This document shows positions 44,212 through 49,843 of a DNA stretch of 64,000 nt, piece after piece. Position 1 is the first letter of the stretch; the number at the start of each line of letters is the position of its first letter. The translations under genes were made by a program, and so were the position numbers. This DNA is from Candidatus Latescibacterota bacterium (GTDB lineage: Bacteria > Latescibacterota > UBA2968 > UBA8231): the NCBI GenBank assembly GCA_965206595.1, contig OZ242214.1, positions 5,056,001-5,120,000 of the forward strand. Direction: 5' to 3'. Under the pieces are notes generated by a model. That model was not told where the DNA came from, did no database searches, and worked only from the letters and a program-made list of their open reading frames with translations.

Positions 44212-44489
44212 GGCGTCAAAGGTCCGGCCAGCCGATTGACGGCACCCGGGTATAATTCAACCGGAAATCCATTTGTGGTTGTTTTTAAGAAGGTTGTGGA
44301 ATTTTTGCAATTACGGAAAATGTGTGCGGACCGAAATTGCACCGAGGTTGCCGGAGGTTTGCTATGCTCTGAAGCGCTCTATATATTGAGAAAAATGTGG
44401 CAGCATTGGCAAAATTGAGGTGTCCGACTCAATATGCAGATTTTAGATCTTGATGGTTTAATGCCTATCAACAACTACGGCACAAGGTA

Positions 44490-46748
44490 ATGGCAAAATC
44501 ACTCGTTGTAGTAGAATCACCTGCAAAGGCGACCACAATCAACAAGATTCTCGGCAAGGACTACCTGGTCAAGTCCTGCATGGGACATGTGCGCGACCTG
44601 CCTCCAAAGGAGTTGGGCGTCGACGTCGACAACGATTTCAATCCCCGCTACGTCACCATCAGGGGCAAGGGAAAGATTCTGGCGGACTTGCGCAGGGCCG
44701 CCCGGACAGCGGACGAGATCTATCTCGCAACCGACCCGGACCGCGAAGGCGAGGCGATAGCCTGGCACGTTGCCCATGCAATCGGCAACAAGGATGACCT
44801 TCCGGTCAAACGCATCCTGTTCAACGAAATCACCCCGAAGGCAGTGCGCGAGTCGATCGCCAAGTCGGGAAAGCTCGACCTCAGAAAGGTCAACGCCCAA
44901 CAGGCACGCCGCGTGCTCGACCGCCTGGTAGGATACGAAATCAGCCCGTTGTTGTGGAAGGTTATACACGCAGGCCTGTCGGCCGGGCGGGTGCAATCGG
45001 TCGCTCTTCGTATGATCTGCGAGCGAGATGCTGAAATCAACGCCTTCGAGCCGCAGGAATACTGGACAATCGATGCCTTTCTCAAGCAGAGAAGTGATTC
45101 TGCCAAGCCTTCTGCCGACGACGAACATCCTGCCTTCACTGCGCGATTGCTGCAGCACCGCAACGAGAAGCTCGTCATATCGAACCAGGAACAGGCCGAC
45201 GCCATCGTTGCCGACCTGCGAAAGGCGGATTTCGCCGTCAAGCAGGTAAAGCGGAAAGAACAGCGGCGGCGGCCTTCGGCCCCCTTTATCACCAGCACCT
45301 TGCAGCAGGATGCAGCTCGGCGACTGCGCTTTTCCGTCAAACGCACCATGGCTGTGGCACAACAACTCTACGAAGGGATCGAGGTTCAGGGGGAAACTCG
45401 CGGTTTGATCACCTACATGCGAACCGACTCGGTGCGAGTCTCCGATGACGCCATTACCGAGGTCCGCGAGCATATCGGCAAGACTTACGGAGAGAATTAC
45501 CTTCCCTCGAAACCGAATGTTTACAAGACCCGACGAGGTGCGCAGGACGCTCACGAGGCGATCCGGCCCACCTACCTTGACCTGCTTCCCGGTGAGCTGA
45601 AAAACAGGTTGAAGGCGGACCAGGCCAAGCTTTACGACCTCATCTGGAAACGCTTCGTCGCCTCGCAGATGGGACCCCAGGTTCTCGATATCACCAGTAT
45701 CGACATTTCCGCCGCCGACTATCTACTGCGAACCACCGGGTCGCGTACGAAGTTTCCTGGGTTCTCCGTGCTCTACACGGAAAGCAGAGAAGATGAAGGG
45801 GACAGCGAGAAGGCCCAGTTGCCTCCCGGTATCGTAGCCGGACAGGAACTCGACGCCCTGAACCTGAAGCCGGAACAGCATTTCACCAAGCCTCCCCCTA
45901 GGTACTCCGAAGCATCTCTCGTAAAAGAGCTCGAGGCGAAAGGTATCGGCAGACCCAGCACTTACGCGCAGATCATAAGCACCCTGCAGAATCGGGAGTA
46001 CGTGGAAAACCTGGACCGCTACTTCGTGGCCACGGAGCGCGGACAAACGGTCAGCAAGCTTCTTATCGAGACCTTTCCCAACATCTTCGACGTCCGCTTT
46101 ACCGCAAAAATGGAAGACGAGCTCGACCGCATTGAGGACGGCAAGGAGAACTGGGTGGAGACGGTGCGCCAGTTTTATGGATCCTGGAGCGATTCCTTGA
46201 AGGATGCGAATTCGCGACGTCGCGAGCTCAAGCAGTCCCTGCAGGAAGAGACCGACATTGTCTGCGAGGACTGCCATCGCAAAATGGTTGTGAAGTGGGG
46301 CCGAAACGGCCGTTTCCTCGCATGCCCGGGCTACCCGAATTGCAAGAATACCAAACCTCTCGAACAGGATCAGGAGCAGGTCCGGACCGACGAAAAGTGC
46401 GAGCTCTGCAGCTCTCCAATGGTCGTCAAGACCGGGCTCTACGGACGCTTTCTCGCCTGCAGCGGATACCCCGATTGTCGCAACGTCAAACCGTACTCTC
46501 TCGGGATATCCTGCCCGGAGCAGGACTGTGGTGGCGAAGTGGTGGAGAAGCAATCCCGAAAGGGGAAGGTGTTCTACAGCTGCAATCAGTACCCGAATTG
46601 CAAGTTCGCCAGCTGGGACAAACCGGTGGAAGGGCCCTGTCCTCACTGCGAAGCGCCGCTCCTGTACGAAAAGAACAGCCGGAACGGGGCGCCGATGCTG
46701 CTCTGCCGCGTGTGCGAAAACCGGTTCGAAAACACTCCTGCCGCTTGA
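44490..46748 (+). CDS. topA: DNA topoisomerase I
   Basis: VVESPAK, ATDPDREGE, SAGRVQS, ITYMRTDS, C-terminal C4 zinc ribbons. Confidence 0.98.
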   Translation: MAKSLVVVESPAKATTINKILGKDYLVKSCMGHVRDLPPKELGVDVDNDFNPRYVTIRGKGKILADLRRAARTADEIYLATDPDREGEAIAWHVAHAIGNKDDLPVKRILFNEITPKAVRESIAKSGKLDLRKVNAQQARRVLDRLVGYEISPLLWKVIHAGLSAGRVQSVALRMICERDAEINAFEPQEYWTIDAFLKQRSDSAKPSADDEHPAFTARLLQHRNEKLVISNQEQADAIVADLRKADFAVKQVKRKEQRRRPSAPFITSTLQQDAARRLRFSVKRTMAVAQQLYEGIEVQGETRGLITYMRTDSVRVSDDAITEVREHIGKTYGENYLPSKPNVYKTRRGAQDAHEAIRPTYLDLLPGELKNRLKADQAKLYDLIWKRFVASQMGPQVLDITSIDISAADYLLRTTGSRTKFPGFSVLYTESREDEGDSEKAQLPPGIVAGQELDALNLKPEQHFTKPPPRYSEASLVKELEAKGIGRPSTYAQIISTLQNREYVENLDRYFVATERGQTVSKLLIETFPNIFDVRFTAKMEDELDRIEDGKENWVETVRQFYGSWSDSLKDANSRRRELKQSLQEETDIVCEDCHRKMVVKWGRNGRFLACPGYPNCKNTKPLEQDQEQVRTDEKCELCSSPMVVKTGLYGRFLACSGYPDCRNVKPYSLGISCPEQDCGGEVVEKQSRKGKVFYSCNQYPNCKFASWDKPVEGPCPHCEAPLLYEKNSRNGAPMLLCRVCENRFENTPAA

Positions 46749-47734
46749 GCAGTGCCGGCCGAGGCCGCGCACCCTTGGAAAGCGAACCTCTACCCGATTC
46801 TACAGCGCGATCCGAAGACGCTCCGAACCCCTCTGCGCCCCTTGAAGACGGCATCGCCCACTTTCTCGATCACCTGCAGAAGAGCGGCCGCCCCGCTTCG
46901 ACCATTGGCGCATACCGCTCCGACCTGAATCAGTTCGCCCTCTTCGTGCATCCGCGCACGGCAGACGCGTCGATCGGTTCCATCGACAGCGGACTGGTAG
47001 GCAAGTTCCTGTGCGAACAAAAACGGCAAAACAAACCTACAACCGCCCAGCGAAAACTTTCCGCGGTGAAATCGCTGTTTCGCTTTTTACAGCGCTCCGG
47101 CGTCCGCGATGACGACCCCGCAGCCGGACTGAGGGTTAGGACCAGACCGCAACCCGCAGAGCCCTGCCTCGAAAAGGAGGCCCTTGCCGAGGTGATCAAA
47201 AAAACGCCGGCCGACAGCTTCGCCGCGGTCCGCAACCGTGCTATCATCGAAATCCTGTACGGAGGTGGGTTGCGGCTCGGGGAACTGGTCGCGCTGAATC
47301 TGACCTCGCTGGAACTCGGATCGGGAATGTTGAAACTCGGCCCGCCGGACGCACCGAGGCTCGTGCCGATCGGTTCGCGTGCCGCGGTCACGATTAGCGC
47401 ATACCTGCTGTGCCGGGCGGACCTCCTGGTCGACAAGGAGATTGCCGATATCGACGCAGGCGCCCTCTTCCTCAACACCTCGGGAAAACGCCTTCACCGC
47501 AGGACAGTGCAACGCATCGTCGAACGCCTGCTGACGTTGGTGAACGGGGGCCGCCCGCGAACATTGCGGCGCGCCTGCGCCGACCACATGCTCGGAGCCG
47601 GTGCCGACGCCGTCGCCGTCGCCAAAATGCTGGGACGGAGAACCCCCGCTTCCGCCAACGTCTCCACTGACGATGAAAAGGTGCTGCTGGGCCTGCGCAC
47701 CACCTACGCAGGCAGCCACCCTCGATACCACTGA
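46745..47734 (+). CDS. xerC: XerC-like tyrosine recombinase with degenerate active site
   Basis: AYRSDL, RKLSAVKSLFRFL, RNRAIIEILYGGGLRLGEL, C-terminal Y...HPR; follows topA (TTG start overlapping TGA assumed). Confidence 0.8.
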   Translation: MSSAGRGRAPLESEPLPDSTARSEDAPNPSAPLEDGIAHFLDHLQKSGRPASTIGAYRSDLNQFALFVHPRTADASIGSIDSGLVGKFLCEQKRQNKPTTAQRKLSAVKSLFRFLQRSGVRDDDPAAGLRVRTRPQPAEPCLEKEALAEVIKKTPADSFAAVRNRAIIEILYGGGLRLGELVALNLTSLELGSGMLKLGPPDAPRLVPIGSRAAVTISAYLLCRADLLVDKEIADIDAGALFLNTSGKRLHRRTVQRIVERLLTLVNGGRPRTLRRACADHMLGAGADAVAVAKMLGRRTPASANVSTDDEKVLLGLRTTYAGSHPRYH

Positions 47735-47776
47735 CCGGGACATCCTCGAAGACGAGTACCTCAGCCGCTACGTCCT

Positions 47777-49483
47777 GTGATTCCTCGATCCTGTCCGCCG
47801 GCCCGAGAACTGTCTTCCCCCGCCGGCGAGCCTCCCCGTATGCCCCCCTGCATCCCGGATCCGGGACCACCTCGGCACTGGCTTCCCCTGCTCCTGGTCG
47901 CCGTCGCCTTCTCCGGAGTTCACTGTGCCAAGGTCGGCAGGCCACCTGGCGGGGAGGTCGACAGGACGGCCCCGGAAATCGTCGGCCATACCCCGGCGGC
48001 CGACGAAACGGAGGTGGCGGTGGAGAGCGCCATCGTTCTCCGTTTCAGCGAAGCAATGGATCGCAGGCGAACCGAGGAGGCCATCTTTATCGCTCCGCGA
48101 GTCGAGCTGCGCTTCCGTTGGAATGGTCGCACGCTTGAAGCATCCCCTGGCCGCCTTCTCGAGAAGCAGACCTACGTGATCACCGTCGGGACCGACACCA
48201 GGGACCGGCGCGGCAACTCGCTGCCGGAACCGTACACCTTCGCCTTCGCCACCGGGGCGGAATTGGATCAGAGGCGGCTCCACGGCCGCGTCTACGAGGA
48301 AGCGAGGCCTGCGGCCGGGGCCCGGGTATGGGCCTACGATGTCCGCCACTTCGAGGGACGCGTAGGCAGCGATCTCCCCGACTACCAGACGCAAGCCTCG
48401 CAGGACGGCTCGTACGAATTCAAACGCCTTTCCCCGGGGCGCTTCCTCGTGATCGCCTTTGGCGACAAAAACCGCAATTCGCGCCGGGACGCCGGCGAAT
48501 CCCTTGCCCTGCCCGCCCGCATTCACGACCTCTCGCAGAGCCAAGCTGTCCATGCAGGAGATCTGTTGATGGTCCCGGGACACCTGACCGCCCCCCGGCT
48601 GAAGCGGGCACAGCCCCTCGACGAGAACCGACTCCTCCTGGCCTTCGACCGCGAGGTGAACCCTCTGGACTCCGTAGTTGAAATCGATGGGATCGAGGTG
48701 CAGGCAGTCTATTCCAAGGCCCACGACCGAACCAGGCTGTACGTCCTCACCAGTCCCCAACAGGCAGGGGCAAAATACCGTTTCGCCAAGATCGTCGTCG
48801 AGAAACAGCAGATTTCGTGGGACCAGCCGTGGCGCGCCAGCACCCGAAAGGACAAGAAGGCTCCTTCCGTGGTCTCGGCAACCCCCTCGGAAATGGGAGC
48901 TGCCGGCGATTCACTGGTGATCGAGTTCGACGAAGGGATGTCCCCAGATACCCCCGCCGACGATTTCTGGATCGAGACCGACTCGACCACGTCAGTAGAC
49001 GGTACCTGGAGGTGGGAAACTCCGACGCGGTTGGTGCTGGTTCCGCACGAGTCCCTGAAACCGGGATCCTATTCCCTGCGCGGCCGGCTCGGACATCTGA
49101 GTGACAGCGGCGGCCTCGCCCCGTCCGACAGCCTCGTCGAGCTCCATTTCGAGGTGCTCCCCGCATCCGAATTGCCGTCTCTCTCAGGGACGGTCAGTGG
49201 GGAATCCCACCTCGATCTGAGCAAAGTGATGGTGATCGCCAGGCGTGTACCGGGTGAGGGCACCTACACCGCCGATTCCGACAGCAATGGAGCCTTCTCC
49301 CTCAAGGAGGTGCTCCCCGGAGAGTATTCGGTGATGGCATTTGCCGACCGCAACCGCAATCGCGTACCGGATGCCGGCACCCCGCATCCCTTCACGCCGG
49401 CTGAGGCCGTCTCGATCTCCGCGGACAAGGTGGTGGTTCGCAGGGGGCAATTGGCCGCAGGAATCGACCTCGAACTCAGGTGA
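47777..49483 (+). CDS. Ig-like (Big_5) domain lipoprotein
   Basis: CA...PPGG..D.TAP, FSEAMD, FAFATG, AFGDKNRN; start uncertain. Confidence 0.75.
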   Translation: MIPRSCPPARELSSPAGEPPRMPPCIPDPGPPRHWLPLLLVAVAFSGVHCAKVGRPPGGEVDRTAPEIVGHTPAADETEVAVESAIVLRFSEAMDRRRTEEAIFIAPRVELRFRWNGRTLEASPGRLLEKQTYVITVGTDTRDRRGNSLPEPYTFAFATGAELDQRRLHGRVYEEARPAAGARVWAYDVRHFEGRVGSDLPDYQTQASQDGSYEFKRLSPGRFLVIAFGDKNRNSRRDAGESLALPARIHDLSQSQAVHAGDLLMVPGHLTAPRLKRAQPLDENRLLLAFDREVNPLDSVVEIDGIEVQAVYSKAHDRTRLYVLTSPQQAGAKYRFAKIVVEKQQISWDQPWRASTRKDKKAPSVVSATPSEMGAAGDSLVIEFDEGMSPDTPADDFWIETDSTTSVDGTWRWETPTRLVLVPHESLKPGSYSLRGRLGHLSDSGGLAPSDSLVELHFEVLPASELPSLSGTVSGESHLDLSKVMVIARRVPGEGTYTADSDSNGAFSLKEVLPGEYSVMAFADRNRNRVPDAGTPHPFTPAEAVSISADKVVVRRGQLAAGIDLELR

Positions 49484-49492
49484 TGCGGCGAA

Positions 49493-49843
49493 ATGCGCTA
49501 TCTCCAGGTCCTCGGGGCCTTTTTTGTTCTCGGCGTAATCGGGATCATCCAGTTCTCACGGCTTAAGCCGGAAGAAACCGGCGAGATCGAGTTGACGGCC
49601 CGATTGGAGGCGTTTTACCTGATGCAGGCAGAATACCGCAGGGAGCACCAGGTGTTTTTCAACCCGCAGGCGGAACCGTACCGCAGCCAGTTGTCCTGGC
49701 TGCAGGAATGCGACTGCGAGGTGCGCTGGAGCCGCGAGGCGTTTTCCGTCGTCGCCCGCGCCGACTTCGACGGCGACGGAATCAGCGGGGTCTGGTGCAT
49801 CGGCCACGGGAGCCCCGAGGTCGAGAAGCTGGGCGAGGACTAG
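49493..49843 (+). CDS. small membrane-anchored pilin-like hypothetical protein
   Basis: N-terminal TM, L...Y..Q..Y helix and FSVVARADFDGDG...VW.I tail. Confidence 0.5.
   Translation: MRYLQVLGAFFVLGVIGIIQFSRLKPEETGEIELTARLEAFYLMQAEYRREHQVFFNPQAEPYRSQLSWLQECDCEVRWSREAFSVVARADFDGDGISGVWCIGHGSPEVEKLGED

Follow-up and report, generated by a model that had tools for sequence, protein, structure and literature searches.

A XerC orthologue without four of its six catalytic residues, and a third recombinase beside a dif-like site at the terminus, in a family of Latescibacterota

What is left for a XerC recombinase to do once it has lost the residues with which it cuts DNA? The usual picture of Xer recombination is of a nearly universal reaction that involves two enzymes, each of which cuts. 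The question is raised here by xerC*, an intact open frame of 329 codons plus a stop on the plus strand (46745-47734) of a 64,000-nucleotide window, which is the whole stretch of DNA analysed and lies at 5.056-5.120 Mb on the single 7.05-Mb contig of a Candidatus Latescibacterota genome (G000). A preliminary description of the window had taken the gene for a syntenic XerC that lost its catalytic residues selectively and became a pseudo-enzyme, for example in dif resolution where only XerD cuts. The open frame, Pfam and NCBIfam matches, alignment and an AlphaFold model are the basis on which we designate it a catalytically dead XerC orthologue.

When set beside the classical XerCD/dif system (E. 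coli XerC; B. subtilis CodV; TIGR02224), xerC* has the same two domains, the same C-terminal tail and the same place after topA as the canonical XerC of sister families, and both a XerD paralogue and an FtsK with a gamma domain are also present in G000. It differs in that four of its six catalytic residues are lost, that its family score is half of the cut-off and that a third recombinase is found at dif. Judged from its sequence, xerC* is a maintained pseudo-enzyme that has stayed under purifying selection after the loss of catalysis. In the reading that we favor, which we hold to be about as probable as its opposite, the enzyme encoded next to dif would have taken over strand exchange and XerC* would survive as a non-cutting DNA-binding or partner protein.

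Active site and predicted fold of XerC*

The catalytic positions were mapped by aligning XerC* residue by residue to E. coli XerD (PDB 1a0p; E 7e-27). The residue numbers of E. coli XerD are those that we take to be in use, and they are consistent with a +2 offset to the aligned chain positions of 1a0p. The losses comprise the loop Lys, both His and the Tyr nucleophile, and both Arg are kept. Arg I is R177 (47273-47275; this and all other features of the gene are on the plus strand), which sits in GLRLGEL where XerD has GLRVSEL and is retained in 13 of the 15 orthologues that lack the Tyr. The loop that normally contains the catalytic Lys (GKGxKER) reads LGPPDAPR (47336-47359) and has no Lys. 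IGKGNKERLVP of XerD corresponds to LGPPDAPRLVP here, so that K172 aligns with P200, or with P201 if shifted by one residue, and the Glu of KER is lost only in the dead group of orthologues. The HxxRH box reads RTLRR (47558-47572; PHVLRH to PRTLRR), with R272 in place of His I, R275 as the retained Arg II and R276 in place of the next His. R275 is invariant in all 31 aligned orthologues, and Arg II is present in all 15 sequences without the Tyr. By alignment and by comparison of orthologues, His II of the LGH motif is R298 (47636-47638; LLGH to MLGR), and the alignment places S307 at the position of the Tyr nucleophile (47663-47665; TTQIY to SANVS). Without the general-acid Lys, the two His and the Tyr nucleophile, XerC* is predicted to be unable to cleave DNA.

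In tyrosine recombinases of this type, the two Arg grip the scissile phosphate and the C-terminal tail docks onto the partner subunit. The tail is retained in XerC* as L317...Y321...H325-P326-R327 (47693-47725). In dead as in live orthologues, H325 and P326 never vary and Y321 and R327 hardly do. It was conceivable that Y321 had become the nucleophile in place of the lost Tyr. However, Y321 is equally conserved in catalytically complete orthologues (94%), which argues that it is a structural residue rather than a replacement nucleophile. We also considered that XerC* might still be a recombinase with an unconventional active site, for instance with Ser307 as the nucleophile and Arg in place of His. 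A Ser at the position of the Tyr, the retention of both Arg and the basic side chain preserved by the His to Arg changes would all suit such an enzyme. On the other hand, the position is variable: members of the genus have S, P or C there, and dead orthologues of other genera have R, G, P, A, H, F or a gap. In addition, the loop is without Lys, and the helix around the former Tyr is the most variable and the least confidently modelled. We find an active site of this kind scarcely credible.

The domain architecture is that of a full XerC/XerD protein, with Pfam matches to Phage_int_SAM_1 (residues 37-118, E 8e-13) and Phage_integrase (residues 154-303, E 2e-17). The first of these is the SAM-like core-binding domain (46853-47098; PF02899), in which Y57, D60, L61, R103 and K104 do not vary between orthologues, whether dead or live. 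It is preceded by an N-terminal extension of about residues 1-33 (46745-46843) that is predicted to be disordered and is absent or gapped in most orthologues. As for the NCBIfam models, XerC* scored 161 bits with XerD (cut-off 329.6) and 157.5 bits with XerC TIGR02224 (cut-off 335), which is below both and about half of what they demand. The alignment, the Pfam matches and the open frame thus bear out a selective loss of catalysis without frameshift, with the core-binding domain, Arg I and the Y...HPR tail kept.

An AlphaFold2 model of XerC* was built on 31 orthologues and gave a mean predicted local distance difference test score (pLDDT) of 83. The score was low only at the termini, falling below 50 at residues 1-21, and at residues 301-307; the drop to under 50 coincided exactly with residues 304-307, the expected start of the helix that bears the Tyr. 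The best fold matches of the model in the PDB were XerA (5hxy) and XerD (1a0p). For a predicted complex of XerD with residues 34-329 of XerC*, the scores were 0.28 and 0.24 against a mark of 0.32. Chain 14 of PDB 9i5v, which has 401 residues and is named 'Ribosome-associated translation inhibitor RaiA', aligned over about 270-290 residues with both XerC* (E 2e-21) and XerD (E 5e-33); this points to a wrong name or to a Xer-like protein in that entry.

Orthology, catalytic loss and selection

Relatives of xerC* were sought in a sample of 41 genomes, namely G000 and 40 others. The family of the window (f1) is represented by G000 and 24 of these, and 16 genomes lie outside it (f2, f3 and f4 included). 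The topA gene lies directly upstream of the XerC gene on the same strand in 20 of 20 f1 loci and in 4 of 4 loci of f3 and f4, where XerC is canonical. In genus g19 of f2, a topA-like match was found 0.75-2.7 kb upstream in 6 of 12 loci, and the f1 genomes G007 and G021 have no topA within 3 kb. The synteny of topA and XerC across f1, f3 and f4 indicates that xerC* is the positional orthologue of an ordinary XerC, and a maximum-likelihood tree of XerC and XerD placed it inside the XerC clade, apart from XerD. The syntenic identity given in the preliminary description was therefore correct.

We also considered a different function, in which XerC* has left dif and acts elsewhere as a sequence-specific DNA-binding protein, for instance in the regulation of transcription or in a task tied to topA and supercoiling. 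Translational coupling to topA through the TTGA overlap of the two genes would be in keeping with this, as would the positions conserved specifically in the dead group (E34, P98, R113, F159, N185, a D-A-G-A-L-F block, R249, R253 and R257). However, since the linkage to topA is ancestral and common to catalytically complete XerC, it is uninformative about a new role. Several of the seemingly dead-specific positions occur in live f1 members as well, and the tail for docking onto a partner is retained. We regard such a departure from dif as unlikely.

Among the sampled genomes, the loss of catalytic residues in XerC is confined to f1. The XerC set R-K-H-R-H-Y is present in all 16 genomes outside f1. 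Within f1, a XerC-type gene was found in 23 of 25 genomes (G000 included), and 15 of the 23 have lost the Tyr. The set is complete in four (G005, G015, G017 and a partial fragment in G006); the Lys is replaced by Arg in G012 and G014, and the set reads R-T-Q-R-H-Y in G010 and G023. With xerC* (P0001) as the query, no XerC-type gene was detected in G011 and G024, two genomes of genus g10 that are 90% and 86% complete and in which a XerD-type gene is present. In the tree, 13 of the Tyr-less sequences, from 10 genera, form one clade (support of 95 in the SH-like approximate likelihood ratio test, SH-aLRT). The pair G004/G020 is placed separately, suggesting at least two ancient losses of the Tyr.

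Columns of the alignment were compared between 15 dead and 16 live sequences, a column being counted as conserved at 90% or more in the live group. Those lost only in the dead group were the loop Glu, H276, L289, K293, H298, L301, T304 and Y307, and they cluster at the active site. Those kept in the dead group include R103, K104, R163, Y220, R224, Arg I, Arg II, Y321 and H325-P326-R327. Within the genus, the most variable stretch of xerC* is the surroundings of the former Tyr. The dead site is shared by 12 further genus-level clusters of metagenome proteins at 74-99% identity, and selective loss recurs in 14 other f1 genomes, so that the pattern is not due to chance. A profile of the dead sequences was also run against 1.84 billion representatives (a 50%-identity library), and 12 of the best 14 clusters were Tyr-less. 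The 151 aligned rows of this search (150 listed matches and P0001) included 132 with the Tyr, ordinary XerC and XerD following the best 14. The dead form hence appears to be the invention of one lineage. Among the representatives, many proteins of 600-870 amino acids (P0125, P0134, P0139-P0153 and others) matched the Xer profile in at least two stretches and appear to be fused double recombinases.

Selection on the gene was estimated as the ratio of nonsynonymous to synonymous substitution rates (dN/dS) by the method of Nei and Gojobori (NG86) in three genomes of the genus (G000, G001 and G002). The ratio was 0.27-0.30 for xerC* and 0.23-0.38 for each of its two domains. Codon bootstrapping of the G000-G002 comparison gave a 95% range of 0.21-0.42, and none of 200 replicates reached 1. 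The XerD-like gene, at 0.20-0.31, and the 568-residue gene downstream of xerC*, at 0.25-0.35, gave similar ratios; those of topA (0.08-0.16), thyA (0.08-0.17) and map (0.09-0.18) were lower. We explored the possibility that xerC* is simply decaying slowly, a pseudogene in the making with no remaining function. It is in favor of decay that its dN/dS is about three times that of topA, that NCBIfam scores are half of the cut-off and that all three differences in xerC* from a near-identical contig (see the last section) alter the protein. Regardless, every one of the 15 Tyr-less lineages has an unbroken frame, even where identity has dropped to 30-48%, the residues of the core and of DNA binding do not vary and the fold is confidently predicted. 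Since the bootstrap never reached 1 and the frame is open in all 15 dead lineages, simple decay is excluded, and we give very little credence to a slower form of it. The orthologues next to topA share the substitutions under purifying selection, as would be expected of the pseudo-enzyme that had been proposed, and a dN/dS near 1 was not seen.

Recombinases at the terminus and the possible role of XerC*

The other components of a Xer system, which the preliminary description had proposed to look for, were found in G000. The XerD-type gene P0002 (C1:6814161-6815075; L002/L035) scored 281.7 bits with TIGR02225, below the cut-off of 329.6. The protein keeps Arg I, Arg II, His II (H270) and the Tyr (Y279). 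Its K172 is replaced by Gly with no Lys anywhere in the loop, and its H244 is replaced by Ala. A XerD-type gene is present in 24 of 25 f1 genomes (G000 included). Among 39 XerD-type sequences in total, Arg II and His II are found in all, the Tyr in 38 and Arg I in 36. The set of six is complete in 14 of 14 sequences from outside f1 versus 5 of 25 from inside. With intact sets outside and degenerate ones inside, the active sites of both XerC and XerD have loosened only in f1 among the sampled genomes. The FtsK of G000 contains the gamma domain (FtsK_gamma, 101 bits), and there are two GyrA/ParC paralogues.

A single site with the dif pattern was identified in G000 at C1:1835978-1836006, with inverted 11-bp arms that end in CATAA and TTATG around 6 bp. 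The arms resemble the published seeds of E. coli and B. subtilis dif, with a match of 10/11 to the B. subtilis XerD arm as given in the accessible part of PMC3025954. With dnaA at 5.203 Mb, the cumulative GC skew counted from dnaA is lowest at 5.20 Mb and highest, at its maximum, at 1.85 Mb. The site is at most 14 kb from this maximum and 0.48 of the chromosome away from dnaA, which places it at the replication terminus. Phage_integrase has 13 matches in the genome. One recombinase, the Cre-like P0003, ends 92 nt 5' of the site (gene and site together at C1:1834961-1836006; L008, L123). It has the motifs R-K-H-R-W-Y, as judged by eye, and P0003-type genes have a dN/dS of 0.10-0.12. The same pair of a P0003-type gene and a site exists in G002 (L125) with a different spacer.

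In most other genera of f1, a different enzyme occupies this place. We reached it through the dif-like site of G004 and coined the name XerX for it. XerX of G004 has 314 residues (L119:1545-2486, minus strand) and scored 126 bits with the NCBIfam XerC model, far below the cut-off. The family (L163-L179) has members of about 300-325 residues, and R-K-H-R-H-Y is complete in 17 of 17 sequences. XerX is a single-copy gene at 61-82% identity in 17 of 24 f1 genomes, and at E 1e-25 or better it is absent from all 16 genomes outside f1 and from the genus of the window. Over the same 13 genomes, the mean pairwise identity was 0.67 for XerX, 0.52 for XerD and 0.44 for XerC. Among the 16 loci with sequence downstream of XerX, 13 have a dif-like site no more than 300 nt 3' of the stop, in most cases with a convergent leuS after it; as a control, there were 7 matches to the pattern per 83 kb elsewhere in the loci. 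The order of the locus is leuS-[site and XerX]-geneZ, and in G000 the same flanking genes enclose P0003 and its site, so that the loci are orthologous. The module of recombinase and site is 0.46-0.50 of the chromosome away from dnaA in all five single-contig genomes (G000, G004, G010, G019 and G020; sizes rounded).

The distribution of these enzymes was compared with that of XerC. Of the 15 genomes whose XerC has lost the Tyr, 10 have XerX and the other 5 a P0003-type match (G000, G001, G002, G019 and G013, the last with a 60-residue fragment only). XerX is also present in G011 and G024, the two genomes with no match to XerC. The f1 genomes with neither enzyme (G005, G014 and G017; 81, 97 and 94% complete) have a XerC that bears the Tyr.

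Three candidates were set aside in the course of this search. P0003-type genes were rejected as a family-wide replacement of Xer since they are found in only 5 of 24 f1 genomes, in multiple copies with fragments. The pattern ACATAA-N6-TTATGT, with one mismatch allowed over the 41 genomes, was too noisy to serve alone as a definition of dif, since in many genomes its reversed control was just as common. Two families (G012, L114; G040, L096) share a dif-like 18-mer whose flanks are conserved, but this was a false positive inside rpoB.

How does XerC* function in such a setting? The preliminary description had offered dif resolution in which only XerD cuts. Stated in full, XerC* would be the silent structural half of a classical XerC-XerD/dif complex, XerD alone would cleave, the Holliday junction would be finished by replication or a junction resolvase, and the recombinase next to dif would be an unrelated or mobile passenger. 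XerD does keep Arg II, His II and, with one exception, the Tyr and, with three, Arg I; the dif-like site has a conserved XerD-type arm; and the docking tail persists in XerC*. The gamma domain of FtsK, which according to the accessible text of PMC3130261 activates XerD in E. coli, is present, and the P0003 family looks mobile. Yet the XerD of G000 is without K172 and H244, and the full set of six is rare among the XerD of f1. Moreover, XerX is inherited vertically, as its synteny with leuS indicates, is single-copy and is the best conserved of the three recombinases, which is not how a passenger behaves. Because XerD of G000 is altered and a complete third recombinase lies beside the dif-like site, the mechanism in which only XerD cuts is supported only in part; the maintained pseudo-enzyme of the earlier interpretation stands, and this mechanism is not supported in the form in which it was put. 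We judge it rather improbable.

The f1 family has gained a third, catalytically complete recombinase by the dif-like site at the terminus, XerX in most genera and P0003 in the genus of the window. We propose instead that this enzyme performs the strand exchange for chromosome-dimer resolution in the manner of the single recombinases XerS, XerH and XerL, and its takeover may have released XerC, and in part XerD, from catalytic constraint. XerC* would have been kept for a DNA-binding or architectural role at or near dif that needs no catalysis, probably in a pair with XerD as before. Candidates for the occupant of the XerC arm are XerC*, XerX or P0003, or both at different times. Among single-recombinase modules, XerS/difSL replaced XerCD in streptococci with the recombinase gene linked to its site, as far as described in the available portion of PMC1914069, and others are XerH/difH (PMC5241119 and PMC3325230) and XerL/dif in Legionellales (PMC9765430). 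As in the XerS module, XerX or P0003 is physically linked to its site, and the site is at the terminus. These lineages are without XerC and XerD, whereas here a dead XerC and an altered XerD persist, and the appearance of the site is still that of a canonical dif with a XerC arm and a XerD arm.

The jobs that XerC* may have are suggested by precedents in E. coli and B. subtilis, namely to scaffold topoisomerase IV (Topo IV) at dif, to stop or engage FtsK and to handle SMC at the terminus. In B. subtilis, XerD unloads SMC in a manner that is reportedly independent of catalysis, and this too is work of a Xer protein at the terminus apart from dimer resolution. This unloading takes place at XDS sites of the terminus (Karaboja et al. 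2021, as cited in the consulted parts of PMC12322038 and PMC11840125). Unlike in B. subtilis, half-sites of the XerD arm are not enriched near the G000 terminus, with 4 observed against 5 expected and 5 against 7. In E. coli, XerC K172A and K172Q still target Topo IV to dif, according to the accessible portion of El Sayyed et al. (2016; PMC4865107). A function of XerC that is independent of catalysis thus exists in E. coli, as this cleavage-dead protein has a structural job at dif. The E. coli variants are point mutants made in the laboratory, whereas the loss in xerC* is natural, multiple and maintained across about ten genera.

Several observations weigh against a takeover by the recombinase next to dif. 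In G001 (L124), a 43-nt deletion removes the spacer and the distal arm of the dif-like site, and no other dif-like copy was found in that genome at up to three mismatches. The P0003 family is patchy and multi-copy, with fragments in the genus. The dS of the P0003-type gene between G000 and G001 is 0.59 versus 0.13 for topA and xerC* in the same pair, which hints at replacement among paralogues. In G019 (L126, C1:1056358-1060236), a P0003-type gene lies between leuS and geneZ among three dif-like sites, two upstream and one downstream, an arrangement that resembles the insertion of a small element into dif. P0003-like genes at 31-54% identity occur in 8 of the 16 genomes outside f1, all with canonical XerC, although their position relative to dif was not checked. 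XerX coexists with a Tyr-bearing XerC in five genomes (G006, G010, G012, G015 and G023), indicating that its presence is insufficient for the death of XerC. Since the genomes are kin, the association of XerX or P0003 with dead XerC represents few independent events, and the tree came from a quick search only. The constraint on xerC*, at about 0.3, is looser than that on core housekeeping genes. Lastly, XerD may still cleave, given the canonical XerD-type arm in the dif-like site and the near-universal Tyr of XerD.

A more far-reaching form of our proposal is that f1 is part-way through replacing XerCD by a dif-linked module, with XerC, and increasingly XerD, kept only for terminus functions that need no catalysis, for instance to mark dif or to dock Topo IV, FtsK or SMC. 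We offer this tentatively, as an idea that is more apt to fail than to hold. It would make f1 a rare intermediate stage between classical and single-recombinase systems, and a third recombinase linked to dif would add another route by which chromosome-dimer resolution can be rewired. The conservation over many genera of a XerC that died long ago points to a function besides cutting on which selection can act, an idea so far raised only by engineered E. coli mutants. If so, xerC* would be a natural separation-of-function mutant, and the non-catalytic role of XerC would be worth keeping for as long as about ten genera have existed. Searches of the accessible full-text literature yielded no natural XerC that is catalytically dead, and neither did the available parts of a 2017 review of Xer under the terms searched. 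Genome annotation will label xerC* 'tyrosine recombinase XerC' even though it is probably unable to recombine.

The locus and its neighbors

Upstream of xerC* is topA (44490-46748, plus strand), which encodes a DNA topoisomerase I of 752 residues with Toprim and Topoisom_bac domains and three Zn ribbons by Pfam. Its TGA stop (46746-46748) overlaps the first codon of xerC*, the TTG at 46745. An alternative start, the TTG at 46775, leads to the called protein P0004 of 319 residues; calls in relatives mostly use the upstream start. Downstream, at 47777-49483 on the plus strand, is the gene for the 568-residue protein with Big_5 Ig-like and CarboxypepD_reg domains, which is syntenic within the genus and has no evident functional link to xerC*. 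Promoter-like sites were found upstream of topA only, and no terminator-like site was found on the plus strand between topA and xerC*, suggesting that the two genes are likely cotranscribed.

Contigs from a run labelled as a metatranscriptome, 93-98% alike to the window, cover 46369-46964, including the junction of topA and xerC*. They come from a relative and reach only the 5' 220 nt of xerC*; such contigs are weak evidence, since their origin in an RNA library does not establish that the gene is transcribed or expressed, and the uncovered parts are uninformative. In another run, a near-identical contig of 9.2 kb differs from the window over 44400-49500 by five single bases and one gap of 1 nt. 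Three of the base differences are in xerC* (47504, 47624 and 47654), and all change the protein, giving T254S, K294E and A304T, as in P0004.

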